Positions 507 to 30,800 of a DNA stretch of 32,000 nucleotides are shown one piece after another. Where the stretch lies: positions 1 to 32,000 of the forward strand of contig JAWOFX010000186.1 of NCBI GenBank assembly GCA_046497275.1, written 5' to 3'. The notes below the pieces were generated by a model. The model did not search any database. It saw only the letters and a list, made by a program, of their open reading frames with translations, and was not told where the DNA came from. This DNA comes from Promethearchaeia archaeon (GTDB lineage Archaea; Asgardarchaeota; Lokiarchaeia; Sigyniarchaeales; SOKP01). Position 1 is the first letter of the stretch. Every line of letters begins with the position of its first letter. The position numbers and the translations under genes were made by a program.

Positions 507-1277
507 CTAATCTTGTTCTTCTGCTTCCTCTCTTCCCATTAATCTCATTACGGCGTCGGCAAGTTTATTCTGTCTTTTACTGGTGATTCCTTTAATCTTT
601 CCAACCTTTCCTAGAACTCTTTCCATGATCGCGTTCCACACAGACCCTGGCTCTCCTTTTACATCCATGAACCGATCTCGAAATACTTCAACACTAATAT
701 TTTCATAATTTTTAGCTGCTTCAGAACATTTAAAGCATAAAATGCATAAATCTTTATCCACTACTATTTCACCATCCTCGACTGAAAGCGCTCCGACAGC
801 ACATTCATCAGCAAACTCTTCAAGAACTTTCTTATCCTTTTCTTCGGATGTGATTTTTATGCTACCATCGACAACTTTTCTAACTTTGTTTCCATTTTCA
901 AGTGTTCTTACTTGCTCTTTAAATTTAGGAAGAGAGTCATTCTCCACAAGTGGGATTCTTTCTTCTCCGTTGATATAGAGTTTTAGCGTATATCCTGGAC
1001 AAACCCATGAACAGCTTCCGCACCAGATACAGCGCTCGGTATTAACGACGATTTTTTTATCCGAATCCATTTTCATTTCTTCTGGTGTACCGATTGCAGT
1101 TTTTTTGATCGGTTCATCGTAAATAGAAATCGTGACAGGACACACACGATGACAAAACCCACATTCCAAGCACTTCGATTCGTCATATTCGAGAATCATC
1201 TCGTGATTGAGCATCTTATAAACGTAATGGGTAATATTCTCGTCTACTTCGATAGTTTTTTTGGCTGGTAATGACAT
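507..1277 (-). CDS. Polyferredoxin (about 3 x [4Fe-4S]), FwdF-like
   Basis: CLECGFCHRVCP, CIWCGSCSWVCP, and a split third site (DECAVGA + CILCFKC). Confidence 0.8.
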   Translation of the reverse strand: MSLPAKKTIEVDENITHYVYKMLNHEMILEYDESKCLECGFCHRVCPVTISIYDEPIKKTAIGTPEEMKMDSDKKIVVNTERCIWCGSCSWVCPGYTLKLYINGEERIPLVENDSLPKFKEQVRTLENGNKVRKVVDGSIKITSEEKDKKVLEEFADECAVGALSVEDGEIVVDKDLCILCFKCSEAAKNYENISVEVFRDRFMDVKGEPGSVWNAIMERVLGKVGKIKGITSKRQNKLADAVMRLMGREEAEEQD

Positions 1278-1494
1278 TTTTTTTCAATTAAAGATATTAA
1301 TTTTATTCTTCTATATTGTTAAATGTTAAAGTAAATTAAAATTTATAACTTCACTATAAAAAGTAAAATTAAATCTCATCTTATACTCTTATGGATCTAA
1401 TATTAGAGAATTTTGTTTATTTTACTTTTTATATAATGTATTAAATGCTAGTCCTTTTATAGATTATATTTTCTAAGTTTTAAAAATAGAAATT

Positions 1495-2937
1495 TCATTC
1501 GAGATCTAAGATTTCTTTGGCAAAATCCTTTTTCTCTCCCACATCTGCTTGTCGGGCAATCATAATACGTTGAGCTTGAGGTGATCCTGCTCCGTGCATT
1601 GATTCTGTCCTATAACTCACAGAAGCTACTCCCATTGTTAAATTTTCTATGAACCGAAGAAGTTTAAACCGGTTAAGTACTGGTTCTTCACATGTATCTA
1701 GATATTTTTTCATATAATGACCTATTTCTTCCGAATTGAAATCCTCTTCAGAGGGTAGAGTAGCAATAAGTCCACCTGCTAAATCTTCCGCTAAACGAGC
1801 TATTTCATATGGAAATCTTGTAACATTTTGCTTGCAAACATTAGCCAATAACATATCCATTTCATAATTACCAGCATCTCTTTGAAATCCTAAGGCGCTA
1901 CACGCAATTCCACTGCTAAAAAGTGTTTCATTTAAATGGATCATTTCTACCAATTTATCTTTAATATGAGAGCTTCTTTCAACTCCATGATATTCAGAAA
2001 TAAGAGCCGAAGCACCAATTAAGACATCTCCAACACCAACTTTACACCCCCCATAAGATTGTCGATGAAAGCCAGCAAATCTATTGACCAAATCACTTGC
2101 AAATTCTATTTCTCCATTCATGAAAATATTTTCATATGGAATAAAAACATTATCAAAGATGACAAATATTTCTTGTCCCCCAAATTTATAATTACCTATA
2201 TCTAATTTGCCTTCCTCCATTTTTCGAGTATCGCTAGCTTGTCGTCCATATACCATTGTAATACCTTCAGCATTTGTATCGACTCCACAACTTATAGCAT
2301 ATTCCTCTTCTCCTTCTCTTAATGATAATGTGGGCATGATAATCGCCCTATGAGAATTTAAAAATCCTGTTTGGTGAATTTTAGCTCCTCTAACTATTAT
2401 TCCATCCTCCTTCTCATCCACAACATGTAAGAATGCATCAGGATCTGGTTGATCTTTCGGGCGCATCCCTCTATTTCCCTTTGTATCTGTCATGGCTCCT
2501 CCAACCATCAAATCTTTATTTTGAACATCAATCCAGTATTTTTTAAAGCGCTCATGATAATTAGTTCCGTATTTTTTGTCCAATTCATAAGTTACACTAT
2601 AAAGAGCATTCGCAGTATCAAATCCGACGCATCTTTGAAAACAACATGCAGTTTTCTGACCAAGTAATCGCTGCATTTTAACTTTTTTGATTAAATCATC
2701 AGTAGATTGATGAATATGTGTAAACCGATTTATCGTTTCACCGGTTAAATGTGATGTCGCTGTCATCACATCTTTATATTCTTCCATCTGGGCTAATTCA
2801 TATATTTTCATTACAGTTCTAATAGAGGGCTTGATTATTGGATGGTTCCAAAATTCCTCTACTTTCTTACCAAACATATACAAATTGACGGGTCGTTTAA
2901 TACTTTCCAGATATTCTTCAGGGGTTTTTAATGGCAT
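1495..2937 (-). CDS. abfD: 4-hydroxybutyryl-CoA dehydratase / vinylacetyl-CoA isomerase (480 aa)
   Basis: CCFQRCVG and HRQSYGGC supply the Cys/Cys/His/Cys [4Fe-4S] ligands of AbfD; also MTDTKGNR and HGAGSPQAQR. Start moved from 3003 to the ATG at 2937 (MPLKTPEEY), which matches the family N-terminus. Confidence 0.9.
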   Translation of the reverse strand: MPLKTPEEYLESIKRPVNLYMFGKKVEEFWNHPIIKPSIRTVMKIYELAQMEEYKDVMTATSHLTGETINRFTHIHQSTDDLIKKVKMQRLLGQKTACCFQRCVGFDTANALYSVTYELDKKYGTNYHERFKKYWIDVQNKDLMVGGAMTDTKGNRGMRPKDQPDPDAFLHVVDEKEDGIIVRGAKIHQTGFLNSHRAIIMPTLSLREGEEEYAISCGVDTNAEGITMVYGRQASDTRKMEEGKLDIGNYKFGGQEIFVIFDNVFIPYENIFMNGEIEFASDLVNRFAGFHRQSYGGCKVGVGDVLIGASALISEYHGVERSSHIKDKLVEMIHLNETLFSSGIACSALGFQRDAGNYEMDMLLANVCKQNVTRFPYEIARLAEDLAGGLIATLPSEEDFNSEEIGHYMKKYLDTCEEPVLNRFKLLRFIENLTMGVASVSYRTESMHGAGSPQAQRIMIARQADVGEKKDFAKEILDLE

Positions 2938-3095
2938 ATATAATAACCAAATTGAATTTTTATGTATAAGAAAAATTACTAATAAATAAGGATAATTATT
3001 CATCTTAATAAGGGATTTGAAAAAAATATTTTTAGTTTCTTGACTTTATTCCAAGAGAACCTTGTATATTTATATAAATTTAAGTATTCCAGAAT

Positions 3096-7776: not shown

Positions 7777-9867
7777 TTATGCCCCCTCTATTGTTTTATT
7801 TGCATTTAAAAAATCAAGAGTTAATTTTTGTCCGTTATATTCTATTATGGTTTGCATACTCCCAAATGTCTGATTGCAGTATGGACTTTCAAATCGCTCA
7901 TATGGTCCTAGATCGATTATTTGATCCTCCACCTTCATTTCCCCATCCCAACTTACCCGAATTTTTCCTTTAGAGGGGGAATTGTAAATGATTTCATACC
8001 CTATAGATTTTTTTGAGATTCCAATATTTGCATTCAGAATTTTGGCTATAAAATCTTCATAGGAATCGAAAGCATCATCATCAACACTTCCTAATTCAAC
8101 TATCCATGCATTTTTCTTTCCTTCCGCTCTTAGTTCATAATTGCTTTTCCACTCTGTTGGGTTATTTGAATATAAAGCTACGAAGCTGTCATTTCGCCGT
8201 CCAAATACCCAATTGTTTGATTTATTCCATTCATTAAAAGCCCAACGTGGGAAATATGCGTGTGTATATGATTTCTCTCCTAAAAATTCTTGAACTAATT
8301 CTAATATAAGCGATTGAGCGCGTCGGTCATATTGGATAATACCCACATTTTCATATAAAGTCGCACGGGGTTTCCAACCACTCGTGAATTTTTGATCACT
8401 AGCACTAAGGGCACTTGGAGAGCTAGTAAATATAGTAGCATTTCCGTCCAAGCAAGCTTGCCAGATAAGTTCTTGAAGACCATTCATTCCTTTTTGATGA
8501 TCCTGGACCCCAGACAATTGGTAATAGGGAGTTTTATATGTATAGGTGTTAGCAGTCTCGAGGGACACACCCTGAGTGATATCCTTTATTATATGACTAA
8601 AATCTTTCAGAGAAGTTCCATAAATAGTGGCTCCAATATCAAATAAATCAACAAAAGCTTCATCGTTAAATATCAATGCGGGATCTAACTCATAAGTATT
8701 CATAATTCTTAAAGAAGATTCTAATACTGGAGGAGCTGCAGGAGCAGACATTGGCCACCAAAACATAAGATCTGATTCGGTTTCATATCCAAATCCATAA
8801 TTAGGACCCTCTGAGATATCTATATTATTCCTTGATTTATGAATATGGGTATTTGTATTTGCGGTCGCATTTGCTATATCTTCTAATATTTTAGGAGTGA
8901 AATAATTCCCTGTTGCCATAAATACGGCAGCCCCGTTTTCTCCAGTAGTTATATCATCTGATCCAATACCAAGCATCAACCAAGCTGGTTCTGCAGTTGA
9001 CTCTTTTTCGGGAGGATTAGATGCGGAAGTACCTACTTGTTTTTCATCCTCAGTTCTTCCGTGGGCAGTGGCATAAAAACCTTTATAATAATTATTTGCA
9101 AAATCAAATCCGATTAAATCAATTAGCATTTCTGCTTTTTTTTGAATGGTAGTATTCTGAGCGAAATCCACCAAATTTAATAAAGCAGTTAAATCAAGGC
9201 GATAATAAATATTTGAATGCCACTCTGCAAACCCAAACTTAGCTCTCCAATCAAGCCAACGGTTCACTAAAGGAAGAGCATGTTCGATATGTTGGGATCC
9301 ATTCCATCCTGAATTAGGAAATATGGTATTAGGAAATAATTGACCAGCTAATAATTCCGCCGTATGGAATAAGATCATATGATTTTCAGTCCAAAAGATC
9401 ATCTCATCTGGACCTGATTCTGTAAACCAATACTTAAAATTTAAAATGGCATCTTTTATGCTATCATTCAAGCCAGAGGGGATATTATATTTGCCAAGAT
9501 CTAAATACATCATTCTTAGTAATGTATTCATATCAAAATCCGAACAATCTTCTCTGATATTGATTTTATCGAGGGATTGGTTGATCCTTGCTTCATTATA
9601 TTCTGTCTCATTCAGATATACTTTGGCACATTGAGCATTAAATCCATCGCTATTATTTGCTAAATCCAAATACATATCTTTACGTTCCGTAAAATTTAAA
9701 TCAGAGAGATAATACGAGGATGGATTCGCAAAATCATCAAGATCAGTATTTATCTCCCCTTCTTTAATTATACCAGACGGTTTTGGAATCAAAGTAGGTA
9801 TAAATATTATAATTGGCATAAGCACTAATATTACTGCGATAATAAGAAGTTGAATGTATTTTTTCAT
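7777..9867 (-). CDS. Membrane-anchored extracellular protein, possibly alginate-lyase/heparinase-like (alpha-toroid + beta-sandwich), 696 aa
   Basis: Single N-terminal TM helix, many NxS/T sequons, WTENH and GFAEWHSNIYY segments. ATG 9867 is preferred over TTG 9882 because GGTG lies upstream. Fold assignment is tentative. Confidence 0.45.
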   Translation of the reverse strand: MKKYIQLLIIAVILVLMPIIIFIPTLIPKPSGIIKEGEINTDLDDFANPSSYYLSDLNFTERKDMYLDLANNSDGFNAQCAKVYLNETEYNEARINQSLDKINIREDCSDFDMNTLLRMMYLDLGKYNIPSGLNDSIKDAILNFKYWFTESGPDEMIFWTENHMILFHTAELLAGQLFPNTIFPNSGWNGSQHIEHALPLVNRWLDWRAKFGFAEWHSNIYYRLDLTALLNLVDFAQNTTIQKKAEMLIDLIGFDFANNYYKGFYATAHGRTEDEKQVGTSASNPPEKESTAEPAWLMLGIGSDDITTGENGAAVFMATGNYFTPKILEDIANATANTNTHIHKSRNNIDISEGPNYGFGYETESDLMFWWPMSAPAAPPVLESSLRIMNTYELDPALIFNDEAFVDLFDIGATIYGTSLKDFSHIIKDITQGVSLETANTYTYKTPYYQLSGVQDHQKGMNGLQELIWQACLDGNATIFTSSPSALSASDQKFTSGWKPRATLYENVGIIQYDRRAQSLILELVQEFLGEKSYTHAYFPRWAFNEWNKSNNWVFGRRNDSFVALYSNNPTEWKSNYELRAEGKKNAWIVELGSVDDDAFDSYEDFIAKILNANIGISKKSIGYEIIYNSPSKGKIRVSWDGEMKVEDQIIDLGPYERFESPYCNQTFGSMQTIIEYNGQKLTLDFLNANKTIEGA

Positions 9868-10143
9868 CTTTTTTAACACCAAATTTATTAGATTTTTTAT
9901 TAGATTTTGAGTTTTTTAATAAAAAATTAAAATTATTGTTGTTAATCATTATTTTTGATACAGAACCTAATAAATTTTTTTTTAATGTTTAATAATCCAA
10001 ATAAATTTTGACAGAACTTTTGGTTGTACTTTATTTTCTAAAAATTTTTAGCTCATTAAAATTACTTATAAGGAAGAGATCTTTATAAAACCTGATTTAA
10101 ACATTAATACAATGAAAAATAAATATAAAAAAAGATAAAAAAA

Positions 10144-11292
10144 CTACGTTTTCTCTAATTCCATCTCTCTAATTGCCTTACCACTTCTAAATGGGGTATC
10201 TTCAACCGATTCTCCTGCGCGATACTTAAATTCCTTTTGAAACTGCTCATTTAGAGACTGAAAAATTAGCGAAAGTGGTATATTCATAGGACAATTATTC
10301 GCACAATTTCCACATTCTACACATCGATCAGCAACATGGGCAATGCGCGTTAACTGATAACTTACATTATCAATATTTTTTTCCTTCCGCTTTTTCTGAA
10401 GGATACAATCGACGCAATAACATACTGGACAGCCCCTAATACACATTCCGCACATAGTGCATTTCTGAAGCTGTTCCAGTTTTTCCTTTTGAGATAATTT
10501 ATTCCATTCTTCGAGATCCTTCGCTCGTTTTTCTTCTGCAGTCTTAAGAATCTCAGCCATTTTGTCTTCATGTGCTTTTTTAATATCACTTGGTAGTTTT
10601 TCAGCCTTAATTCCTGATTTATCGATTAATTCGCCTGCAGCATCACTATGAACTTTTAAGATAATATTTTCATCTTCAATAGGAATTCCAATATCACTAA
10701 TAGAAATGTCTGCGATTATAGGTTGCTTTCGAATACATCTCGAGCAATTATCAGCAATTTCGATTCCTACTTGTTTTGTCTTTCCATCATCAAGTAAAAA
10801 TAATAATCCATCATCCGTGATTTTCTCCTTTACGATTTTTGTGGTATCAAGATCCTTCTCGCTTCGAAGTTCCCGTGAGACATTTAATGTCATTCCGCGA
10901 TCTTCAATTCCAATGATAAATAAGTTATCTAAATTCACTTGTTTTATTTTGCTCAATTCTATTAATGCTCTTGTATCGCAAGGTCGAGCTATTAAAGCGA
11001 TTTTCTCATTTTTCGCTCCATCTGCGCTTGCATGTAAGAATTTAGAGGCAGAATCCGTTCGGGCGTATCCATAGGTAATTAAATTAGACACGGGAAAACT
11101 TTCAATCTCCTCGGGTTTTTCCCATAATTTTGGAGAGATTGAAAATCGATCTACTTCACCGGATTTTTTACTTACTTTTACTTCTGCGCCGATTATTTTA
11201 TCAACCATTCCCTCTTTCAATAAGGTCTTTAACAATGTAGGGAAGTCTTTTTCTTTTATGAGATATTCTGCTTGTGTTTCCACAGCTTTCAA
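10144..11292 (-). CDS. FdhB/FrhB-family (F420-binding beta-subunit-like) protein with C-terminal 2x[4Fe-4S]
   Basis: ARPCDTRALIEL, CSRC, CTMCGMCIRGCPVCYCVDC and RCVECGNCANNCP; TTG start. Confidence 0.75.
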   Translation of the reverse strand: MKAVETQAEYLIKEKDFPTLLKTLLKEGMVDKIIGAEVKVSKKSGEVDRFSISPKLWEKPEEIESFPVSNLITYGYARTDSASKFLHASADGAKNEKIALIARPCDTRALIELSKIKQVNLDNLFIIGIEDRGMTLNVSRELRSEKDLDTTKIVKEKITDDGLLFLLDDGKTKQVGIEIADNCSRCIRKQPIIADISISDIGIPIEDENIILKVHSDAAGELIDKSGIKAEKLPSDIKKAHEDKMAEILKTAEEKRAKDLEEWNKLSQKEKLEQLQKCTMCGMCIRGCPVCYCVDCILQKKRKEKNIDNVSYQLTRIAHVADRCVECGNCANNCPMNIPLSLIFQSLNEQFQKEFKYRAGESVEDTPFRSGKAIREMELEKT

Positions 11293-11430: not shown

Positions 11431-11502
11431 TTAAATGGGGCTTCCATTTCTTCAACAAGATTCTCATTTTTTCAACCTTGTCTCATTAGGACACACATTT
11501 AA
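11431..11502 (-). promoter_or_regulatory. SECIS element, eukaryote-like (AUGA / apical A-run / GA)
   Basis: Minus-strand RNA: UUAAAUG..CCUA-AUGA-GACAAGGUU-GAAAAAAUGAG-AAUCUUGUU-GA-AGAAAUGG..CAUUUAA. Contains a 9-bp upper stem (two G.U), an A6 loop, a tandem G.A core (11483-11486 / 11452-11453) and a 7-bp lower helix. Starts 2 nt after the stop of a UGA-containing gene. Confidence 0.9.
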
Positions 11503-11504
11503 TT

Positions 11505-11924
11505 TTATGAGGAGCTTTCTTTTAAAGGATTTCCACCCAATCCTTTAATAGTATTATAGAATTCTGTGGCTACTTCTTTAAACCTTGCGCCTTCAGCAGA
11601 ACTGCAAAATTCCATTCTAAGTCTCTCAGGTGCGATTCCTGCTGAATTTAACACATCTTTTAGATATTCTACGCTACGATACGCAAATTTATTTCCTGTC
11701 TCGTAATCACACTCTCCTGGATGTCAGCCGACGATTAATACCCCATCAGAACCCCTTCCGAATGCGCGCATAACAAGATCTGCTCCAACTCGTCCGGTAC
11801 ATGGAACAATAATTATTCTATATGCTGTTGGATATTGGGCGCGAATTGTGCCTGCCATATCAGCTCCTCCGTATCCTCATTTTCTACAACAAAATGCGAT
11901 TATCTTAATTCCATTATTTGTCAT
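11505..11924 (-). CDS. mvhD: Selenocysteine-containing MvhD/VhuD ([2Fe-2S] hydrogenase delta subunit), 139 aa, 2 Sec
   Basis: Absent from the ORF track. IAFCCRK-U-GYGGADMAG (TGA 11877-11879, codon 16), CTGRV, GVLIVG-U-HPGECDY (TGA 11724-11726, codon 67), ERLRMEFCSSAEG; ends TAA at 11505-11507. Confidence 0.95.
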
Positions 11925-11937: not shown

Positions 11938-13896
11938 TTACTCTGCAATAGGTAGTAATGCATCAATAAATGCATCATATTGATTATCTTTATAATGTGC
12001 TAATTCTATAGCTTTTGAAGGACACAAGGATTCACAAATTCCGCATCCTCTACAGCTAATGATATCCACTTCTATTAAGTTTTTTCCATTGATTGAAATC
12101 GCACCGTAAGGACATGCCTCAACACATTTATAACATTTCGCACATCGTTCATCATTTGGTTGAGCTCGAATTAGCTCTATTATGTATTCCTCGTTTTTCA
12201 TCGGGATACTTGCTTCAGAGGCTGCTCCTTTTGCTTGACTTACCGTAAGGTCTATTGATTTTTGGGCTTGACAAGAACCCGCAATATAGATTCCCGGAGT
12301 TTTTGTTGATATGGGATCTAATCGTGGATGTGCTTCTTTTAGAAAGCCATCCGGAGTCTTTTCCAAATTCATCACTTTAGCAATTTCATCTGTACCTTTA
12401 GATGGAAGTGATGCTGAAGAGAGTATCACCATATCAAATTCTTTTTCAATGATTGTATCTGTTCCCACCGGTTCTAATTTAACTATGAGATTTTTTGTTT
12501 CGGGATCTTCTTGTATATCTCCCACCATTCCTTTTACAAATAATATGCCTTGATTTCGTGCCCGCCGATAATATTCTTCATACATCTTACCACCAGCACG
12601 AATATCTATATAGCATACCATTATCTCAGAATCGGGATACTCTGATTTGATAAGCTTGGAATTTTTTATCGAAAGATTGCAGCACACCACGCTACAATAT
12701 TCATGTGTTTTTAAACTTCTCGATCCCACGCAATTAATGAAGAGTATCCTTTTAGGTCGTTCTCCATCAGATGGTCGTTTTAAATGTCCTAGTGTTGGTC
12801 CGTTTGGTGCGATTATTCGTTCCAATTGTACTTGTGTTATAACGTTATCATATATTCCATACCCATAATCATCTCCTTGGTAAAGATCCCAACCAGTTGC
12901 AATTATTATTGTTCCTACTTCTAACTCAACAATTTCATCTTGTTGACTAAAATCAATCGATTCATTATCACAAGCGTCTACACATGCAAAACATTCTACA
13001 CATGAATCTCGTTCAATGTTAGAAATTGCAGGAACTGCTTGCGCAAATGCAATATCAATACATTTTCGAGCAGAAAGGTTCTCGTCAAAATAGTTTGGCA
13101 CATATATAGGACATACATCAGTACAAGATCCGCACCCAGTTCAAAGTGTTTCATTAACATATCGCGCTTTGCGTTTTACTTTCACGTTAAAATTCCCAAT
13201 ATATCCATCTACATCTACAACTTCACTATATGATAAAATTTCGACGTTTTTATTACGCTCAACTTCTAGCATTTTAGGTCCCAAGATTCAGATACTGCAA
13301 TCATCAGTTGGAAATGTTCTATCAAGTTGAGCCATTCTTCCTCCTATGGTAGTCTCTTTCTCCACTAAGTACACTTTATATCCCTCATTTGCTAAATCTA
13401 GTGCAGCATTTATTCCCCCAATTCCACCACCGATTACTAGAGCCTCTGGTTTTACGGATACTTTTTTCGTTGGAATATCTTCTAATAACCTAGACCTTCC
13501 AATACCTGCTTTAACTAATTCAATTGCTTTCTCTGTTGCCTCCTCTCGTACATCGGGATCTTGATGAACATAAGAACATTGCTCTCTTATATTAACAAAT
13601 TCAAGATGTCTTGGTGGCAAACCTGCTTCTTTCAAAATATCCATAAATACTGGTTCATGAGTAAGAGGAGTTCAAGCTGCTAAAACTATTCTATCAAAAC
13701 CTTTTTCTGCGATCTGTTCTTTCATGAATTCTGCGCCACCAGACGTACACATGTTTAGATATTCGTATGCGTTTACATTCTCTTCTTTATCAATCTCTTC
13801 GACAATCTTCGGTACATCGAGTATTCCTGCCACGTTTACACCTCAGCGACAGATAAAAGCTCCTACGTTTTCCTTGGTCTGTTCATCATCAGACAT
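11938..13896 (-). CDS. hdrA: Selenocysteine-containing heterodisulfide reductase subunit A, 652 aa, 4 Sec
   Basis: One frame joins track ORFs 13288-13644 and 11938-13101 plus upstream sequence. FICR-U-GVNVAG (TGA 13843-13845, codon 18), LAA-U-TPLTHEP (13672-13674, codon 75), FPTDDCSI-U-ILGPKM (13288-13290, codon 203), ETL-U-TGCGSCTDVCP (13141-13143, codon 252). Also GGGIGG FAD motif, CVGSR, YCSVVCC and C-terminal 2x[4Fe-4S]. Confidence 0.95.
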
Positions 13897-13997
13897 TTTT
13901 CTCACTCTTAGAAAGTAATACCTCCTAATATCTTGAGATTTACTTGTTTTTGATTTATAATTATTATTAGTATTTATTTTAATTGGTAAAATTAAGA

Positions 13998-18000: not shown

Positions 18001-20550
18001 ATGAACCTAAAAATAAAAAAACCAATTGTGTTATATCTAACGCTGTCGATTATGCTTATATTTTCAATAAATAGCCTGTTTTTACTTATCGACATTGAAG
18101 ATAATAATAGCACACAGAACAATGATAATTTCAACTTAGAAACTTCACAGACGTGGAATTTAGATCCATTCATTATTTCTCAAACGGGAGGGGGCAATGG
18201 AACGTGGGATTGGGCGGTTAGTCAAGAGTGGTGTGATGGGTCTGGAACTCAAAATGATCCTTATGTTATTGAAAAGGTTGTGATTGATGGTGGAGGTGGA
18301 ATCGGTACAAGCGGTATTACTATTATTGATTCAAATGAATATTTTATCATCCAAAATACTACAATAACCAATACAGGCCTATTATCTGAAGATGCGGGAA
18401 TAAAACTATTAAATACCACTAATGGGGTAATAAAAAACAATAATTTATCCTACAATCTTGGAAACGGGATTTATTTGAACAATTCAGATCATAATGAAAT
18501 TATAACCAATGAGATCCATAATAATGACCGTAATGGCATATATTTCTATCATTATAATGATTATAATCTTATTAGTGAAAATTCGCTATATTCAAATGGA
18601 TTAGCTGGGTTTTATCATGGGATTTATTTGGAGCGTCATTCCAAATATAACATAATAAGCAAGAATAAAGTCATTGATACGGGAGGTTATGGAATTCGAA
18701 TTTATATTGATTGCGGTAATACGACTGTTATTGAAAATGAAGTGAAAAATTCACAATCAGGAATTTTGATAAATGAGGATGATTGTATAGTTACTAAAAA
18801 TATTATTTTAAATAATTCAGAATATGGTTTATTAATTACACTTTCAATGGGTTCTCATTCATCAGTAACAGATAATTATTTTGAACATAACGGGTTTACA
18901 TCAAACGGAAATGCAATATACGCAATAGGATCTAACTTTTTAACCATAATAAATAATACTCTTATAGATAATTATCGCGGTATATACCTAAAAAATTGCC
19001 AAAATAATATTCTTTCTAACAATCAAATTTCAGATACATTAGATTATGCAATTAATATTATCGACACTTTTGGCGATGAACCTGAAAACGACATAATAAA
19101 AAACAATTATATTTTTAAATGTGGAAATGGAATCAAATTGGAAAAGTGGGCTAATAATATCGAGATAATAAACAATACAATTATCAAACAGAGAGGATAT
19201 GGTATCAGTATTGACAGGTATTGCAAGAATAATATAGTGAAAAACAATTACTTACTCAATAATGGCAGGGGAATACTAATTGGAGATGAATCAAATTATA
19301 ATAATATCACGAAAAATATTATTCAAGGCTCTGAATATGAGGGCTTAGAAATATACCCAACTGCAATTAATACTACGGTATATCAAAACTATTTTGTTTT
19401 TAATGATATCCAAGTTTTAAATTATGCGGGCTCAACCATGTGGAATTATACAACTTTAGGTAATTATTGGTCAAATTATACAGGATATGATTTAGATGAT
19501 GATGGTATAGGAGATATTCCTCATCCAATCATTAGCGTTGCAAATGGAATGGATTATTACCCTATTTTCAAAAAGATTACCCCAATATTCATTGATGATT
19601 ATACAGATTATGATTGGGAATGGGCAGCTCAGCAATTTTGGGTAAACGGTTCAGGTACTGAAGAAGATCCTTATATTATTCAAAATAAAATAATTGATAA
19701 ACAATGGCAGGCAGCTTGCATTGAGATTAGAAATTCTGAAAAACATTTCATTATCTCTGATTGTACCCTAAACACTAATGATGCGATTTTTCCGGGAATT
19801 ACTTTATATAACGTTAAAAATGGAGAGATCAAGAATAACTCTATCACCACCAGCCATACGGGACTTGAGATATATGGAAGTAGTGAGGTAAATATTTCAC
19901 GAAATCACATTAATTATAATTATATCGGTATAGATTTAGCTCATAGTGAAAAGATAAATGTTTCAAACAATAATATTGATCATAACAATATTGGACTCAG
20001 TATCCACCAAAGTAATAACAATTTATTCCAGGAAAATTCTCTATTAAACACAGATTCTTGCATTATTGAATATGAATCTGAGAATAATACATTTGACGGT
20101 AATATTTGTGATCCGCCACCTTTACAGAAGCTTTATATGACTATGACCGATCAACTTTTCACTGTGGATGAGTTTACCATCACTTTCTTCATTTCTAATG
20201 CGACCTATCATGGAGTTGAAGAGGTTTCAATAACCGCGTATTGGAATGGTACTGATGTTTCGGCAAATATAACCGAGCTCGGGAGTGGGTATTATATGAT
20301 TTCACTCGATCCTATTTTTATAGCTCCTGGAGAATCTGGAATCGATTTTGAAGCCTCACTCTCAAAAAATGGTTTTGAAGAGCTTTCTTACTCTTCCGAA
20401 TTTTCAATTGACCCAGAGGCTCTCCAAAAGGATGAAACGCCTTCTACACCCGGTGGAGCAATTCCTTGGTCGACTCCAGCTATTTTAACCTCAACGCTCA
20501 TCGCGATTATTGGGCTACTACTATTTCTTCGCAAAAAACAATTTAACTAA
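18001..20550 (+). CDS. Cell-surface right-handed beta-helix (NosD/CASH-like) glycoprotein with C-terminal membrane anchor
   Basis: N-terminal hydrophobic signal, Asn-ladder GI.L...NN.I..N repeats, GNYWSNYTG.D.DDDGIGD.P motif, more than 20 NxS/T sequons, C-terminal IPW + TM + RKK. Confidence 0.85.
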   Translation: MNLKIKKPIVLYLTLSIMLIFSINSLFLLIDIEDNNSTQNNDNFNLETSQTWNLDPFIISQTGGGNGTWDWAVSQEWCDGSGTQNDPYVIEKVVIDGGGGIGTSGITIIDSNEYFIIQNTTITNTGLLSEDAGIKLLNTTNGVIKNNNLSYNLGNGIYLNNSDHNEIITNEIHNNDRNGIYFYHYNDYNLISENSLYSNGLAGFYHGIYLERHSKYNIISKNKVIDTGGYGIRIYIDCGNTTVIENEVKNSQSGILINEDDCIVTKNIILNNSEYGLLITLSMGSHSSVTDNYFEHNGFTSNGNAIYAIGSNFLTIINNTLIDNYRGIYLKNCQNNILSNNQISDTLDYAINIIDTFGDEPENDIIKNNYIFKCGNGIKLEKWANNIEIINNTIIKQRGYGISIDRYCKNNIVKNNYLLNNGRGILIGDESNYNNITKNIIQGSEYEGLEIYPTAINTTVYQNYFVFNDIQVLNYAGSTMWNYTTLGNYWSNYTGYDLDDDGIGDIPHPIISVANGMDYYPIFKKITPIFIDDYTDYDWEWAAQQFWVNGSGTEEDPYIIQNKIIDKQWQAACIEIRNSEKHFIISDCTLNTNDAIFPGITLYNVKNGEIKNNSITTSHTGLEIYGSSEVNISRNHINYNYIGIDLAHSEKINVSNNNIDHNNIGLSIHQSNNNLFQENSLLNTDSCIIEYESENNTFDGNICDPPPLQKLYMTMTDQLFTVDEFTITFFISNATYHGVEEVSITAYWNGTDVSANITELGSGYYMISLDPIFIAPGESGIDFEASLSKNGFEELSYSSEFSIDPEALQKDETPSTPGGAIPWSTPAILTSTLIAIIGLLLFLRKKQFN

Positions 20551-22066: not shown

Positions 22067-24001
22067 TTATTTTTTCCCCCCTTTTTTCTTTGGTGGTTCT
22101 AAATTTCCAATAACAAAATCCAAACCCAAACTTTTGAGAGTTTCTTCAGTAGGAATACCTGTTTCTGTATCCCATCCTCGAGCTTCATAATACCCACTCA
22201 ATAATTTTTGATATCCTTTTTCCTCTAGGGTTACTCCTTTAGCAGGTCCTTTAGTATGTGCTTCTTTGAAGAATCGCTCAGGAGGATGGTCATCTGCTCT
22301 TGTCCATCCTTCACGGATATTAAAGCACTTCGATAAGGTTACTATTGCATTTCCTCGTTCTTTCATAGAATCTCCAGTATGAGGGATGCCAGTTACTAAT
22401 TCATAGACTTTCGCCATCTCATCATCATCCTCATAGACTCCACGAGTGAATTTACAAATAATATAGGAATCAATAACGGCATAGATATCCTCTACATCAA
22501 TTATTGCGTTTCCTCGTTCAACGGGTTTATCATAGGCAAACCTATCAAACTTTCCTTTAGCATCAAGTCCATAAGCTCCATTTCGTAAGTGGCACGCTCC
22601 GCGAATTGAAACACTCTCTCCCACGGCAAAAGAAGTCATGCCATGAAGATCGAATGCAGGCATTTCCAATCCTTTAATATTCATTGCATGAAAACTAGCA
22701 TTTTCGCGTCCCATTTCTTCTAAACGTTTTCCTGCCATTAAAGTTCCATCACCAAAAACTTCCCCAGCAAAACCCTCTCCTCGTATCATCTCTTCGGTAA
22801 ATCGGACTAGATTTTTTGTAGAGCCAAATGGTAATTCATATCCCAAGTCTTTTTTAGTGATAATTCCCTCTTCAAATAAATCACACGCCATAGCCGCAGT
22901 AACGCCACCTGATATTCCATCAATGCCTAAATCATCACATAATTCAATACATTTAAACACAGTAGGCCAATCAGCATTACCACAAGCTGTACCAAAAGAA
23001 TATAAAAGTTCTATATCTGTACTTGCAACTAAATTTGGATAATCAGGATGGTTTTTTGATACTCTTGCTAAATGATCGCAAGCAACGGAGCATTGAGAAC
23101 ATGCTACTTTCTTTACGACCCAATCTTCATTAAGAGTTTCTCCTGTATACTCACCATTCGTTATTTTTTCCCAAGTGCCCTCCTTATAATTATACGTGGG
23201 CATCATTCCAAGTTTATTATAACTCGTAAGTCCAGCTGGGGTTCCTAAATCTCGATATTTCGAAGTTGCAGGTCCGTTAGCAACTTTAATTAGTTTTTTA
23301 GCTAATTGATAAAATTCTTTAGGTTTTGCTACAGAAATAGGTTTCGTGCCTCTAAAGGCAATAGCTTTTAGGTTTTTGGAGCCCATTACCGTTCCCATAC
23401 CAGTTCTACCCGCCTGACGATTTCGATCATTAGTGATACATCCCAATCGACTCATCCTCTCTCCACCGGGACCGATTGCCATCACAGCTAATCTTTGATC
23501 TTGAAATTCTTCTCTTAGTATTTCTTCTGTATCCCAACATCCCTTGCCCCACAATAAATCTTCGCACGACATGCTATATCTATCATCATCATCCACAACA
23601 AATACAACCGGTTCTGGTGCTTTACCCTTAAAAACTATCATATTAACACCAGCACGTCTTGCTTGGGCACCAACTGATCCCGAGGAAATAGACATACCGA
23701 ACATATTTGTTAGAGGTGATTTTGCAAACACACCATATTTTGAACTTGTTGGTAAAATGGTTCCCGGAAATGGACCTATTGCCCAAACGAAAATATTATC
23801 AGGACTTAAAGGATCAATACCTGGTTCTAATTCATCCCATAATACTTTTGCTCCAAAACCATAACCACCTATCCAGTTTGCGAGAAAATCATTTGATAAT
23901 TTAGTTTCTGTTATCTTTCCCGTAGTTAAGTCGACATCGAGTCTTGTCTGCGTGTAACCCTTTACTTCATCTGGAATTGTTAAATTTTTTGCTTCGGTCA
24001 T
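22067..24001 (-). CDS. aor: Tungsten-dependent aldehyde:ferredoxin oxidoreductase
   Basis: AGRTGMGTVMGSKNLKAI, CSQCSVAC, CDDLGID, RGACHLR, YYEARGWD. ATG 24001 is preferred over GTG 24013 because a GTGTGA SD-like motif lies upstream. Confidence 0.93.
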   Translation of the reverse strand: MTEAKNLTIPDEVKGYTQTRLDVDLTTGKITETKLSNDFLANWIGGYGFGAKVLWDELEPGIDPLSPDNIFVWAIGPFPGTILPTSSKYGVFAKSPLTNMFGMSISSGSVGAQARRAGVNMIVFKGKAPEPVVFVVDDDDRYSMSCEDLLWGKGCWDTEEILREEFQDQRLAVMAIGPGGERMSRLGCITNDRNRQAGRTGMGTVMGSKNLKAIAFRGTKPISVAKPKEFYQLAKKLIKVANGPATSKYRDLGTPAGLTSYNKLGMMPTYNYKEGTWEKITNGEYTGETLNEDWVVKKVACSQCSVACDHLARVSKNHPDYPNLVASTDIELLYSFGTACGNADWPTVFKCIELCDDLGIDGISGGVTAAMACDLFEEGIITKKDLGYELPFGSTKNLVRFTEEMIRGEGFAGEVFGDGTLMAGKRLEEMGRENASFHAMNIKGLEMPAFDLHGMTSFAVGESVSIRGACHLRNGAYGLDAKGKFDRFAYDKPVERGNAIIDVEDIYAVIDSYIICKFTRGVYEDDDEMAKVYELVTGIPHTGDSMKERGNAIVTLSKCFNIREGWTRADDHPPERFFKEAHTKGPAKGVTLEEKGYQKLLSGYYEARGWDTETGIPTEETLKSLGLDFVIGNLEPPKKKGGKK

Positions 24002-24050
24002 TTCTATATTCACACTTAATTATTGGTTCTAGTTTATTAAAATATTTATC

Positions 24051-25260: not shown

Positions 25261-26118
25261 TTAGGGCTTAAGAGTTTTTATATTAGAATATTTTAAAACT
25301 TCTCCAGAAATAAAGAATAATCCTTTCTGTCCTACATCTCTACCTTGATCATGATTATCTGCCCAATCTACTGAAACTTTCCATCCACTTTTTTTAAAAT
25401 AATTAGTTATCTTTTCTTTTTCTATTCCCCATTTAAAATGTTTGGAAAATGGCCCTAATCTCACCTCAGCATATACAGGGACACATAGATCTGTAAATAT
25501 TCGGCTCTTTTTTGAGCTAATCTCGCTAATTTTTTTTAATACTAAACTAGCTTCATTTTTTTCCAAGTAATACATGACTCCCTCTAAAACCCAAAAGGTT
25601 GGGATATCTTTCGAATAACCATAGTGAAAAAGTTTATCAATCCAATTAAGATTCGAGAGATTTTCACTTATTCGTATTAATTCACACAAAGATTTTTCTC
25701 CTTTTAATATTTCTTTTTTATACTCCATTAACTCAGGCAAATCTATTTCAAACAAAGTGTGCAAGTTTTTTGATAATGGAGTGAATCGATACGCGCGTGT
25801 ATCTAATCCTGCACCTAATAAAACTACTTGAGATCTATTTCTTTCATAACACCATAGTTTCAATAAATTTTCCTCGATATAGTAGGATCTCACTATGCTA
25901 TAATCCATTTTTGAATATCTCCCATGATCTTTAAAATATTCAGTTAAGTCGCCAGCTAAACTTTTTGCATACGGATCAATAATCAATGCATCTTTCAATT
26001 CAAATTCTTGAGCACGATAATATGCCATAAGTCTCGCTGTAAAAGGAATAGGTGCTCTGTCTTGATCCACTCTGTTATATTTATTATTGAACCTTTCAAA
26101 AGAAGGATTCTTTTTCAT
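25261..26118 (-). CDS. SAM-dependent methyltransferase, leucine-carboxyl-methyltransferase (LCM/ML2640-like) family
   Basis: TARLMAYYRAQE, DPYAKSLAG, QVVLLGAGLDTRAYR, FEIDLP, EGVMYYL. Confidence 0.85.
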   Translation of the reverse strand: MKKNPSFERFNNKYNRVDQDRAPIPFTARLMAYYRAQEFELKDALIIDPYAKSLAGDLTEYFKDHGRYSKMDYSIVRSYYIEENLLKLWCYERNRSQVVLLGAGLDTRAYRFTPLSKNLHTLFEIDLPELMEYKKEILKGEKSLCELIRISENLSNLNWIDKLFHYGYSKDIPTFWVLEGVMYYLEKNEASLVLKKISEISSKKSRIFTDLCVPVYAEVRLGPFSKHFKWGIEKEKITNYFKKSGWKVSVDWADNHDQGRDVGQKGLFFISGEVLKYSNIKTLKP

Positions 26119-26234
26119 AATTTTAAAATCATGTATACATATAAATTTTTTAACGAGTAATATAATTTATTAAAAATTCTTGAATTTTATTAATTTAAAC
26201 CCTAGCTAGTAAAATAAGTATAGAACTTGAAAAA

Positions 26235-27344
26235 TTATTTTGATTTTCTAGAAATCATTTTCCTGAAGAAATTCTTTCTTTTTTCTCTCCAATCAGTCTC
26301 TTTATCTCTGGGAGGGATATATTGATCAATATATTTTTGTGATAATAAAGTCTCTATCAATTTTTGCCCTGGTTCCGTTCTGGTAATAATTATCGAATAA
26401 TTTTCCGGTGCACCTGTGGATCCTACACTTATATCAGAAAATCTACCAGCAAAATCATCACAGACTTTGCAATGGGATCTTACAGCAGGGTCTAAATTCT
26501 TAATATTAACTTCTAAGGTATCACCTTTCTCACTTTCAACAAAAAAGTTCTTCTTTATATATGTTTTTTTAATATCTGAAGGTTTTATTCCTTTATCCTT
26601 CCTTATTAACTCATAAAGCGTGGAATACTCAAAGTTTTCAAAACAGAATAAACTGATAATATATTTGACAACATGAGCAGGTTTTATACTGAGCAATTTC
26701 ATTTTCCTTAAGGCTTTTACTTGACAAGGCGTTCCTACAAAAGCCACACGGATTTGGTCAATGTCATAAATACCTTTTTCTTTTTGAATTTGTAAGGGAA
26801 TATTGTACAAGTCTTTTAATGGTAAAACTTGACTAGATATAGAATATCGTGTTCCGGCAGATTTTAAGAGTTCCTCTTTGTCAAATATTAATTTTGGTTT
26901 TGGGTGAAGTTCCTCATCATATTCAGAAACAACAGCAGCATCGATTTTATTTTTCTCGAATAGATAAGATAAGATAGTAGTAACTATTCCTCCATCTTGT
27001 CCAACCTTATTTATTGCTTCTCTTGTTGTTTTTGCAGCGATTATATCAATTATATGCCCTAATTCATCTTGTATTTCAAGATTTTCGACTAATAATTCCT
27101 CCAACGTGTCTGTTTGAGGACAAATATAATAACAAAGTCCACATTCTGTGCAATTATCTTCATTTTTTTTTGATTTGAATTTAGGAATATATTCATCTAA
27201 CTTAATCACATCAAAGCTTTGGCTTTCACAATAAGCTACACATGCCCCACATGCGCAACATAAATCTTTTTGAATTACTTCCTTATCTAAATCTTTAAAT
27301 GTTTTTACTTCCTCTTGCTCACTATTAGATAATGATTCTGTCAT
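26235..27344 (-). CDS. Coenzyme F420 hydrogenase/dehydrogenase beta-subunit family protein with N-terminal 2x[4Fe-4S]
   Basis: CCACGACVAYC, CTECGLCYYICP, QDGGIVT, AGTRYS, VGTPCQ, CFENF, CKVCDDF, DISVGS. Confidence 0.88.
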   Translation of the reverse strand: MTESLSNSEQEEVKTFKDLDKEVIQKDLCCACGACVAYCESQSFDVIKLDEYIPKFKSKKNEDNCTECGLCYYICPQTDTLEELLVENLEIQDELGHIIDIIAAKTTREAINKVGQDGGIVTTILSYLFEKNKIDAAVVSEYDEELHPKPKLIFDKEELLKSAGTRYSISSQVLPLKDLYNIPLQIQKEKGIYDIDQIRVAFVGTPCQVKALRKMKLLSIKPAHVVKYIISLFCFENFEYSTLYELIRKDKGIKPSDIKKTYIKKNFFVESEKGDTLEVNIKNLDPAVRSHCKVCDDFAGRFSDISVGSTGAPENYSIIITRTEPGQKLIETLLSQKYIDQYIPPRDKETDWREKRKNFFRKMISRKSK

Positions 27345-27353
27345 TTTTTATCC

Positions 27354-27818
27354 TTATTCCTTTTTTAGTTCAATCTTTCCAAATTTTTTGGGAAAAGATG
27401 AGGGACCTAAATTTGAAATAATCTCATTAAATTCCCGTATTAATTCAGCAAATTGTTTTCCTTCACTAGCTGAAATCCATTCTAATCGAAATCTATTAGG
27501 ATTAATTCCTATTTTTTTCAATAAAGTTTTCATATGATTCATTCTTTCTCTTGCTAATTCATTACCACTAATATAATGGCAATCACCGATATGACATCCT
27601 GTAACTAAAACACCATCTATACCATTTTTAAATGCAGTTAAAATAAATGAGGGTTCTACCCTTCCTGAACACATCACTCGTACTATTCTGATACTTGGAG
27701 GATATTGAAATCTTGAAACTCCCGCTAAGTCTGCTCCGGCATAAGAACACCAGTTACAGCAGAAAACTAAAATTTCTGGAAGAAAGGCTTCTTTCTCTTT
27801 AATTTTTGTTTTACTCAT
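27354..27818 (-). CDS. mvhD: MvhD, all-cysteine form
   Basis: FCCNWCSYAGADLAG, MCSGRV, GCHIGDCHY, WISASEG. Confidence 0.95.
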   Translation of the reverse strand: MSKTKIKEKEAFLPEILVFCCNWCSYAGADLAGVSRFQYPPSIRIVRVMCSGRVEPSFILTAFKNGIDGVLVTGCHIGDCHYISGNELARERMNHMKTLLKKIGINPNRFRLEWISASEGKQFAELIREFNEIISNLGPSSFPKKFGKIELKKE

Positions 27819-27847
27819 TATTAATTTAATCCCTCAAATATTGGATA

Positions 27848-30800
27848 TTATTCTAAATTAATGCCTGGTAATAATTCAATCTGTTTTCTAATCTGAAAAT
27901 TACTGAAATGTCTCTGATTAATAGCCCCTAATGGACATTCAGCCGCACATGCCCCGCATCCTTTACAGAGTGCTTTAATTACATGTGCTTTTTTCTCATT
28001 GACAGTATAAAGACCAATCTGTTTAGTAATTTCTAACATTTCTATCGCATTGTAAGGACATATCTCTGCACATGCACCACATCCTATACATTTCTCCTCA
28101 TTCACATAACAAGTTATCCCCTCCGTCTCGACTTCTCCTTTAACCATTAAAGAAGCGGCTCTCCCGGCAGCTCCATATGCTTGTGTTATTGCTTCATCTA
28201 TCCATTTTGGCCAGTGTGCTCCGCCACATAAGAAAATCCCATCAGTTGCAAAATCAACTGGACGAAGTTTAACATGAGCCTCCAAAAAGAATCCATCTTT
28301 AGTGGTAGGGACTTTAAGCATTTTAGCGAGTTCATTAGTTCCCCTCCCCGGAATTTCAGGGGTTGCAAGAACTAATAGGTCTGTATCATATTCAACTTCA
28401 CAATTCGCACCAAGATTATTATAATTTATGTGAAATGCTCCATTATTCTCTGAAATCGTTATTTCTTTGATGGATTTATATCTTTCAAAAGAAACTTTTT
28501 TCCTTAAATCACGCCATAATCGCTCAGCATTCAAGTCAGAAAATTGTAATTCTCTATATAGAATATGGATATGTGCTTCTGGATTGATATCCAAGAGTTT
28601 TTCAATATTTTTAAGCGCTACTTTACAACAAATATTACTACAATAGGTTTTTATAGTCTCACCTTGATTAAATTCATTCCGTCTTTGATCCACACATAAT
28701 ATAATTGTAGCATCATTAAAACCTGGTACTTTTGTATCTTGCGTAGCTTCTAATTCATTTTGAGTGAAAACTTTATTTGGATGCTTTTTAATAGCATCTT
28801 TCCATCTATCTGTATCTGATTGACTAGTTCCCGTAGCCACAATGATAGTTCCAACTATGAAATCAAAAGTGTCTGATTCATTTTGGACATTTTGGGTTTT
28901 AATTTCATAATTTCCTACGTATCCGGTTATATCTGTGATTATAGAGCTCGTTAATAAATGAACATTTGATTTTGTCTTTAAATCATTAATATCCTTCAAA
29001 ATATCTTGTTTATGCATAGGAATATCATATAAATCAATGAATTCTAAAGAATTCCCTCCTAAACTTGGCTTTTTCTCAACAAGATATAATTCAAATCCTT
29101 GATTAGCAAGATTATGAGCTGCCACTATACCAGCAATTCCGCCACCTATTATCATAGCTGATTTTTCAACCTTAACTTTGATTTTTTCAAGAGGTTGAAG
29201 ATTAACGACTTTAGCCAAATACATTCTGATTAAGTCGCAAGCTTTTTTAGTCGCTTTTTCAGGCTCATTATGGTGTACCCAAGAATCTTGATCTCTAATA
29301 TTAACCAATTCAAATAAAAATGGATTTAATCCAGCTTCTTTTAAAGTATTTCTAAATAATGGTTCATGAGTTCTTGGAGTACATGATGCTACCATAAATC
29401 TATTTAATTTATATTCTTTAATCATTTCCTTGATTCTCTCTTGAGAATCCGAACTGCATGAATACATATTTTCTTCGGCATGTGTTACATAAGGAAGCTT
29501 AGAAACATAATCAACCACCGCTGAAGTATCAACAACCCCCGCGATATTTATTCCACATTGGCATACAAGAACACCTACTCTTGGTTCATCATCTATACCT
29601 ACAGGAATTTCTGGGGGATAAACAACCTCTTTTATATTATTAAATCTAACGGGATTGAGTTTTTCACTTATTTTGGCGGCGCAAGCACTTCCCTCAGCAA
29701 CCGCTACAGGTATATCTTTTGGTTTCCTTGAATAACCAGTAAAAAATATGTTATTTTCTTCTGATTTAATCAATCCCTCTTCATTAATAAAACCAAATTC
29801 ATTATAGTCAACATTAATGCAATCTAATAAATCATAATAAGAATCATTTGGAAATAAAGCACTTGCTAATACAACCATATCATATTCATCATTTTCAACT
29901 TTATTTTTATCAATATCTTCATAAAATAAAGTCAATTTACCATTTTGCGGATTCTCCTTAACCAAGGAAACTCTACCATTAACATAATTTACTCCGTATT
30001 CCTCTTTACTTTTTACTATAAATTCATAAAAATTCTTACCTTTTGCTCTTATCTCTGTATTGAATATAGCACATTCAGTATCTGGAGCATGTTCTTTAGC
30101 CACGATTGCTTGTTTAGCAGAGGACATACAACAAATTGAAGAACAATATTTTTTACAATCTGGATGATGGAAATCTCGCGATCCAACACATTGTAGAAAA
30201 GCAATCTTATGAGGATGTTTTTTATCATCGAAACATATTAATTCTCCACCTGTTGGCCCATTAGCAGATAATAATCTTTCAAATTGCATACTTGAAAGAA
30301 CATTTGGATTTGAACCCGCCAGTAGAGAATAAAACTCTGGGTACTGCTGTTCATAACCAGTGGCTATAACGATCGCTCCAACATTTATATCAATTTCTTT
30401 GGGTTTTTGAGTGAAATCAATCGCGTCTGCTTTACACCCTGTAGCACATAGTTTACAAATTCCATGATTCAAATAAAGACATTTGTTTTCATCAATTAAA
30501 TAGATTGGAGGAACTGAAGAGGGAAATGAGATATGAGCAGCACTACGAGTAGTTAAGTGAGCATCAAATTCACTTGGAATTCCTTTTACGGGACAAATTG
30601 TAGCACAATCTCCACAACCCTTACATTTTGTCTCATCAACATACCTTGGTTTTCGAATTACTTTCACATTATAATTTCCAGCCGTTCCATTAATTTTTTC
30701 TACATGTGAATAGGTTAGTAGCTCAATATTAGGATTTCTATATACTTCCACCATTTTTGGAGCTAAAATACACAAAGAACAATCTAACGTAGGAAATGTC

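Follow-up and report, generated by a model that had tools for sequence, protein, structure and literature searches.

The minus-strand segment between positions 11938 and 13896 of a 32,000-nucleotide (nt) stretch of contig JAWOFX010000186.1, from a Promethearchaeia archaeon (assembly GCA_046497275.1), raises a simple question. Does it hold the remains of an hdrA gene interrupted by four TGA stop codons, or an intact gene in which these codons specify selenocysteine (Sec, U)? The whole stretch is referred to here as the window. We consider it very probable, close to certain, that hdrA is intact and that its four in-frame UGAs are decoded as Sec, together with a vhuD partner gene and one Sec insertion sequence (SECIS) element that lies downstream and is shared by both genes. 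A preliminary description of the same DNA had proposed a hidden HdrA with four Sec residues. This proposal gained support from the protein family, the cysteine columns on which the codons fall, the Sec machinery of the genome, the two-Sec VhuD, the shared SECIS and the conservation in relatives.

An hdrA frame interrupted only by TGA codons

When TGA was read as U, the segment formed a single open frame of 652 codons, ended by a TAA at 11938-11940. The frame contains exactly four in-frame TGAs (Table 1), with no further stop and no frameshift, which reproduces both the uninterrupted frame and the four codon positions given in the preliminary description. Translation with table 11 breaks the same frame into open reading frames (ORFs) of 53, 118, 47 and 387 amino acids (aa). 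An ordinary gene caller would therefore split the gene, and the splitting that had been reported was found again. Together with its neighbour vhuD, hdrA is a clear example of selenoproteins split by standard callers, in its own case into four pieces.

Five solved HdrA chains, including 5odc_A, 9sfi_A, 8rvu_a and 7bkb_A, align end to end with the window protein. The best structural relative by sequence is 5odc_A (E 1.9e-205, residues 9-641), and the alignment to 9sfi_A covers residues 10-650 (E 2.4e-200). Every U of the window protein stands opposite a Cys in these alignments, and U203 stands opposite X, the symbol for Sec, in 9sfi_A. The methanococcal Sec at the DCxxU motif, which the preliminary description had cited, is thus found at the corresponding position. 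In Pfam, Pyr_redox_2/FAD (flavin adenine dinucleotide) domains matched around residue 152, and Fer4 domains matched in two regions, 246-311 and 581-633. The domain order of HdrA, with an N-terminal cluster domain, a thioredoxin-reductase-like FAD domain, an inserted ferredoxin and a C-terminal ferredoxin, is present at full length. Judged from its sequence, the product of 11938-13896 is an intact, full-length HdrA homologue of a Promethearchaeota (Lokiarchaeota-type Asgard) archaeon.

The TGA codons fall on conserved cysteines

An alignment was made of 51 HdrA homologues, translated through their stops, from the source genome and from 40 relatives. Cys or Sec is conserved at ≥90% in 26 of the 652 columns of the window protein, and all 26 are Cys or Sec in the window protein. 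The conserved cysteines tested as present comprise those of the N-terminal domain, the C200/C203 pair, two CxxCxxCxxxCP pairs per ferredoxin domain, and C389, C401, C405 and C406. All four TGAs of the window gene lie on columns where Cys is 100% conserved. The claim that each TGA replaces a conserved HdrA cysteine was therefore upheld by the solved chains and by the homologues alike. The preliminary description had named TGAs at random, non-Cys positions of orthologues as contrary evidence; across the 51 homologues, 129 of the 130 in-frame TGAs sit on conserved Cys columns.

A further 55 orthologues (67-82% identity) were added from a scan of species-representative genomes. They come from metagenome-assembled genomes labelled Promethearchaeota or Promethearchaeia, which is the current name of the Lokiarchaeota lineage. 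The U203 column is TGA in 49 of 51 homologues and in 56 of 56 orthologues, and the U18 column in 42 of 51 homologues and in all 55 orthologues having the column. At the U75 column, TGA was found in 24 of 51 homologues and in 19 of 56 orthologues, mostly from the nearer subclade, with TGT or TGC elsewhere. Sec-HdrA genes were found in nearly all of the 40 relatives, and the source genome itself has three paralogous Sec-HdrA genes with 3, 3 and 2 TGAs. All related Sec-HdrA genes examined terminate with TAA or TAG, and nearly all are followed by a VhuD carrying a CxKUGY motif.

Two further observations were made on these homologues. The sole TGA outside a Cys column is at HdrA column 166 of one sequence (L062, G023:C125), where the other sequences have Leu or Ile; an error, a true stop and a Sec in place of a residue other than Cys are all conceivable. 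Three HdrA paralogues (L057, L058 and L060, on G015:C54, G019:C26 and G021:C16) carry Sec at every one of the recurrent columns (18, 50, 75 and 203), which covers each invariant Cys associated with the N-terminal domain save C16 and C200.

One SECIS hairpin downstream of vhuD

The gene that follows hdrA encodes a VhuD/MvhD protein (Pfam FlpD, 1.5e-45; NCBIfam VhuD, 4.2e-41; MvhD chains of the PDB, E 1e-39), with two in-frame TGAs of its own. Beyond its stop codon lies a hairpin of the lokiSECIS type. Its core consists of an AUGA (11486-11483), a perfect 9-bp stem (11482-11474 with 11462-11454) and a GA (11453-11452), and its A-rich apical loop of 11 nt reads GAAAAAAUGAG. The predicted fold has a minimum free energy of -15.8 kcal/mol (z -3.6). 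No second such hairpin was found on either strand of the window, and shuffles give 0.15 per window. The six UGAs, four in hdrA and two in vhuD, are located 240 to 2359 nt upstream of the hairpin.

Identical hairpin geometry was observed downstream of VhuD in 29 of the related loci examined. In the alignment of these 29 loci, 92.7% of cells are paired, compared with 49.6% after shuffling, and in each of the nine stem pairs both sides have changed. Covariation scored 1.12 versus 0.26, and none of 500 shuffles and no slid register came near the observed values. At gathering thresholds, Rfam detected none of its families in the window, and matches over the SECIS region were at chance level only; lokiSECIS is not a curated family.

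These elements suggest how the six codons would be read. The hdrA gene would very probably be carried on one mRNA with vhuD, which starts 13 nt downstream. The eukaryote-like SECIS past vhuD would recruit a Sec-specific elongation factor with Sec-tRNA(Sec), and this single element would let all six UGAs be read as Sec, with the UAA terminator of hdrA escaping recoding. The expected product is a flavin- and iron-sulfur-containing, electron-bifurcating HdrA with an MvhD-type [2Fe-2S] partner. From the domain content, HdrA-MvhD is most likely an electron-bifurcating or confurcating flavoprotein module.

Sec machinery of the genome

The source genome (3.85 Mb in 188 contigs, 98.9% complete) contains a tRNA-Sec that scores 49.4 bits on the Rfam model, above threshold. 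Its anticodon UCA lies in the loop CUUCAAA, and its T-arm region is extended by an insertion of 30 nt. ARAGORN left this tRNA uncalled in the genome, probably because of the insertion. A SepSecS gene (381 bits) adjoins it. A SelB-like factor of 472 aa scores 234 bits on the selB model (TIGR00475), compared with 132 bits on EF-1alpha, and its gene lies 3 kb from a tRNA-Sec copy. The SelD gene has one in-frame TGA. Pfam PF21208, which describes domain III of eukaryotic SelB, had no match anywhere, control genomes included, and is uninformative. The preliminary description had made its reading depend on this machinery, and tRNA-Sec, SepSecS, a UGA-containing SelD and a SelB-like factor were indeed found, with a weak match only for PSTK.

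The contig ends also deserve mention. A tRNA-Sec with identical score is located at the ends of contigs C33 (11-129) and C165 (63-181) of the source genome. SepSecS is encoded on C33 and the SelB-like factor on C165, and the two contigs probably join at the tRNA-Sec into one Sec-machinery cluster.

Table 1. Features of the hdrA-vhuD locus, in window coordinates
Feature	Position	Strand	Remarks
hdrA coding sequence	11938..13896	-	652 codons + TAA; alternative start GTG three codons upstream, at 13905
HdrA U18	13843..13845	-	in-frame TGA; CxU motif, N-terminal domain
HdrA U75	13672..13674	-	in-frame TGA; AAUTP motif, N-terminal domain
HdrA U203	13288..13290	-	in-frame TGA; canonical HdrA Sec site DCxxU (methanogen Cys197/Sec197)
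HdrA U252	13141..13143	-	in-frame TGA; first Cys of UxxCxxCxxxCP, inserted ferredoxin domain
vhuD/mvhD coding sequence	11505..11924	-	139 codons + TAA; ATG 13 nt past hdrA stop
VhuD U16	11877..11879	-	in-frame TGA; CCxxU motif, opposite Cys in MvhD structures
VhuD U67	11724..11726	-	in-frame TGA; GUHPGEC motif, Cys column
lokiSECIS-type hairpin	11431..11502	-	core 11452-11486; begins 18 nt past vhuD TAA
FrhB/FdhB C-terminal domain + 4Fe-4S dicluster gene	10144..11292	-	Pfam FrhB_FdhB_C 1e-07, Fer4_8 2.2e-07

Alternative readings of the TGA codons

Under the standard code the hdrA frame is interrupted four times, as would be expected of a pseudogene inactivated by four nonsense mutations. However, all four stops are TGA and all are on invariant Cys columns (P ~2.5e-6 that four random codons all land on columns with Cys conserved at ≥90%), and the gene has neither frameshifts nor stops of another type. 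At two of its sites, TGA is shared by every orthologue in 56 genomes, and a SECIS and the Sec machinery are present. The pseudogene reading was rejected given that the stops are TGA only, are on Cys columns and are conserved in orthologues; we regard its probability as negligible. The frames would equally remain open if TGA were a sense codon genome-wide, for instance for Trp, Gly or Cys, with no Sec involved. Against this, TGA terminates 4 of the 24 long frames of the window, and the large genes at 18001-20550, 22067-24013 and 27848-30949 have zero in-frame TGAs, which together argue that there is no genome-wide reassignment. In-frame TGAs occur only in known selenoprotein families, at their Cys columns, and none were seen at many non-Cys positions of conserved housekeeping genes. 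The dedicated tRNA-Sec, SepSecS, SelD and SelB-like genes also argue against a sense codon. As TGA still terminates genes and the Sec machinery is present, global reassignment was rejected too, with hardly any likelihood left to it.

Decoding of all four UGAs as Sec remains by far the preferred reading, and several observations weigh against it. Sec insertion is deduced from the DNA. The 234 bits of the SelB-like factor are just below the bacterial selB cut-off of 242, and the PSTK-like match is weak (54 bits) and has one TAG inside. With NCBIfam, the window protein scored 753 bits for HdrA2 (cut-off 1100) and 630 bits for HdrA (cut-off 1400), on models of 771-777 positions that include a fused MvhD part. 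Being below these equivalog cut-offs, it is to be regarded as an HdrA-family homologue, and the models do not certify it as an equivalog of the CoB-CoM enzyme of methanogens. A search confined to the scanned ORFs of the window recognised no hdrBC. Finally, U252 is known from one assembly only, which leaves room for an error at this codon or for a nonsense mutation of recent date.

U252 and other predicted Sec residues at ligand positions

At column 252, all 50 other homologues and all 55 other orthologues have TGT or TGC. A search of 400 Asgard genomes for the TGA-containing motif, with the pattern U-T-G-C-G-x-C-xxx-C-P and hence for the U-T-G-C-G spelling only, matched the window gene and one distant HdrA-MvhD fusion. 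The first Cys of the CxxCxxCxxxCP ferredoxin motif is a direct [4Fe-4S] ligand. Because U252 occupies the place of this Cys, it is predicted to be a cluster ligand, and by this motif logic the earlier assignment of U252 to the cluster of the inserted ferredoxin holds.

Two origins are conceivable for U252, a recent replacement of Cys by Sec or an error of the assembly. It is accordingly worth weighing a reading in which U18, U75 and U203 are genuine Sec and U252 goes back to a mistake in sequencing or assembly, or to a TGY-to-TGA change so young that it has not yet been purged. In that event, residue 252 of the functional protein would be Cys, or else the allele would suffer a mild defect. The TGT or TGC found at this column in every other homologue and orthologue fits such an event, one third-base change suffices to give TGA, and the position is that of an Fe-S ligand, where Sec is unusual. 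However, Sec recurs at other ferredoxin-motif or cluster Cys columns of relatives, namely 302 (two species of one genus), 595, 618, 621 and 405/406, and also in the C-terminal ferredoxin motif of a distant family. Mariotti et al. (2016; PMC4989117) also report one ligand-type Sec site. The rare Sec residues at ligand columns suggest that such replacements are tolerated on an mRNA with a long-range SECIS. Where such an element already serves an mRNA, a Cys codon that turns into UGA would be decoded as Sec, and the change would not necessarily cause a defect. Overall, we consider an error or unpurged change at 252 unlikely, though distinctly less so than the two readings rejected above.

The genes with rare Sec sites have features of their own. 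The distant Asgard HdrA-MvhD fusion (L079; G146:C6:17728-20762, minus strand 999-3017) has no N-terminal domain, and its canonical site is occupied by Cys; its single TGA is at the first Cys of the CxxCxxCxxxCP motif of the C-terminal ferredoxin. In a related genome, another HdrA gene (L061; G021:C12:39500-43300) contains five TGAs in frame, each of them on a Cys column (18, 203, 405, 406 and 621), of which 405/406 form an adjacent UU in the CC motif. This is one Sec above the maximum of four in Mariotti 2016. No VhuD was recognised downstream of this HdrA.

Comparison with known systems

Only the U252 site is new; the remaining arrangement was published for this lineage in 2016. According to PMC4989117, HdrA of Lokiarchaeota has up to four Sec at five positions, with the canonical site always included, and the preliminary description was right to cite this multi-Sec class. 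The paper further states that HdrA is always followed by a two-Sec VhuD, that the HdrA stop is always UAA or UAG, and that a single lokiSECIS after VhuD serves up to six UGAs over about 2 kb. The published lokiSECIS consists of an AUGA...GA core, a 9-bp stem, an 11-nt apical loop and an A run. Huang et al. (2024; PMC11227280) extended the survey to 1439 Asgard selenoprotein sequences.

Set beside the HdrA-VhuD pair described in PMC4989117, the window locus shares the multi-Sec HdrA, with all Sec residues at conserved Cys, the two-Sec VhuD on the same strand, the UAA stop and a SECIS present only after VhuD, and its hairpin geometry is exactly as published. In contrast, U252 was found in no other genome examined. 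The only ligand-type site described in the paper's text, in the last [4Fe-4S] motif with an extra Cys after it, appears to be a different position. The locus thus adds little to Mariotti 2016 and Huang 2024, being one more six-UGA hdrA-vhuD operon, with one eukaryote-like SECIS that would act over 2.4 kb. A possibly useful addition is the pattern of the Sec sites: the recurrent columns 18, 50, 75 and 203 are in, or dock onto, the N-terminal shuttle-cluster domain, and Sec is rarely found also at classical ferredoxin ligand positions such as 252.

HdrA of Methanococcales (M. maripaludis, Sec197, PDB 9sfi; PMC13518236) has the same domain order and the same DCxxU site, and is likewise partnered with a two-Sec VhuD. 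It has one Sec only, whereas the window HdrA has four. In Methanococcales each gene has its own archaeal-type SECIS, as PMC4989117 describes, in contrast to the shared element of the window. The methanococcal protein belongs, with HdrBC, to a methanogenic Hdr-Vhu-Fwd assembly. In the window, by contrast, hdrA has no hdrBC next to it, and the host lineage of the window is, by the literature, not a methanogen. With HdrA of Methanothermococcus thermolithotrophicus (PDB 5odc, HdrABC-MvhAGD), the window protein has all cluster-binding and extra Cys columns in common, but the former has Cys at all four positions that are Sec in the latter.

Predicted roles of the Sec residues

We infer the chemical roles of the Sec residues from homologous positions in solved HdrA structures and from sequence motifs. 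For the canonical site, in the account that Chadwick et al. (PMC9012536) give of the 2017 crystal structure, Cys197 of one HdrA ligates the N-terminal cluster of the partner HdrA. A 2026 cryo-electron microscopy study (PMC13518236) places Sec197 and a Cys in selenylsulfide-like density between cluster A3 and the FAD, and in another 2026 study (PMC13580544) the Cys202/Cys205 pair binds an unknown ligand, with MvhD Cys16 nearby. By analogy, U203 would form a pair with C200 between the MvhD [2Fe-2S] or the N-terminal [4Fe-4S] cluster (HA3) and the FAD, and in the crystal state it would ligate HA3 of the partner. The role of the U203 site is, on this analogy, dynamic.

U18 and U75 lie within the N-terminal cluster domain, where their positions seem to match those of the two Sec in VhuD. 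Candidates for direct ligation of HA3 in this domain are C16, U18, C50 and U75, which correspond to C11, C13, C46 and C71 of M. thermolithotrophicus, U203 being the counterpart of its C197. In a weak alignment of the two domains (E 0.003), U18 stands opposite VhuD U16 and U75 opposite VhuD U67, so the Sec sites of the two paralogous domains appear homologous. From the CCxxC motif, the counterpart of VhuD U16 in MvhD appears to be Cys16, the "additional" Cys that is not a ligand. At U252, Sec would take the place of the Cys that is the first ligand in a ferredoxin-type [4Fe-4S] motif. The preliminary description had further suggested that U18, U75 and U203 may all surround the N-terminal cluster and make it selenium-rich. 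The literature supports this for U203 and offers no support for U18 and U75; a selenium-rich N-terminal cluster is a plausible idea.

A wider proposal can be made, with U252 as a genuine Sec that gives a selenolate-ligated ferredoxin-type [4Fe-4S] cluster. U18, U75 and the partner's U203 would make HA3 and the gating Cys pair largely selenium-based, and Asgard HdrA would sample Sec at many Fe-S ligand positions. We offer this proposal tentatively and think it slightly more likely to fail than to hold. If it is true, any TGY-to-TGA change at a Cys codon of the hdrA-vhuD mRNA would be immediately viable through the long-range SECIS. Relatives would then hold a natural series of Cys-to-Sec cluster-ligand variants (252, 302, 405/406, 595, 618 and 621), unanalysed since the HdrA structures appeared, and this series would also take in the genes with Sec at all of 18, 50, 75 and 203. 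Such natural Sec variation could be of help in asking how selenium contributes to flavin-based electron bifurcation, a question called unresolved in the 2026 cryo-electron microscopy paper (PMC13518236).

Neighbouring genes

The FrhB/FdhB-like iron-sulfur protein encoded at 10144-11292 may be the electron-input partner of HdrA-MvhD, and we infer co-transcription of its gene with hdrA-vhuD. Downstream of these three genes, a 701-aa ORF (7777-9882, minus strand) had no match in the Pfam and NCBIfam scans. The segment 21500-24013, also on the minus strand, encodes an aldehyde:ferredoxin oxidoreductase of 648 aa, with AFOR_N and AFOR_C domains, and after it a polyferredoxin of 187 aa.

A second HdrA-type cluster, with zero TGAs, was found at 25261-30949 on the minus strand. 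It comprises a fused double HdrA of 1033 aa (27848-30949), a Cys-type MvhD/FlpD (27354-27818) and an FrhB/FdhB-like protein (26235-27344) with N- and C-terminal domains and a ferredoxin. The gene order of this cluster mirrors the order of hdrA, vhuD and the frhB-like gene at the Sec locus.

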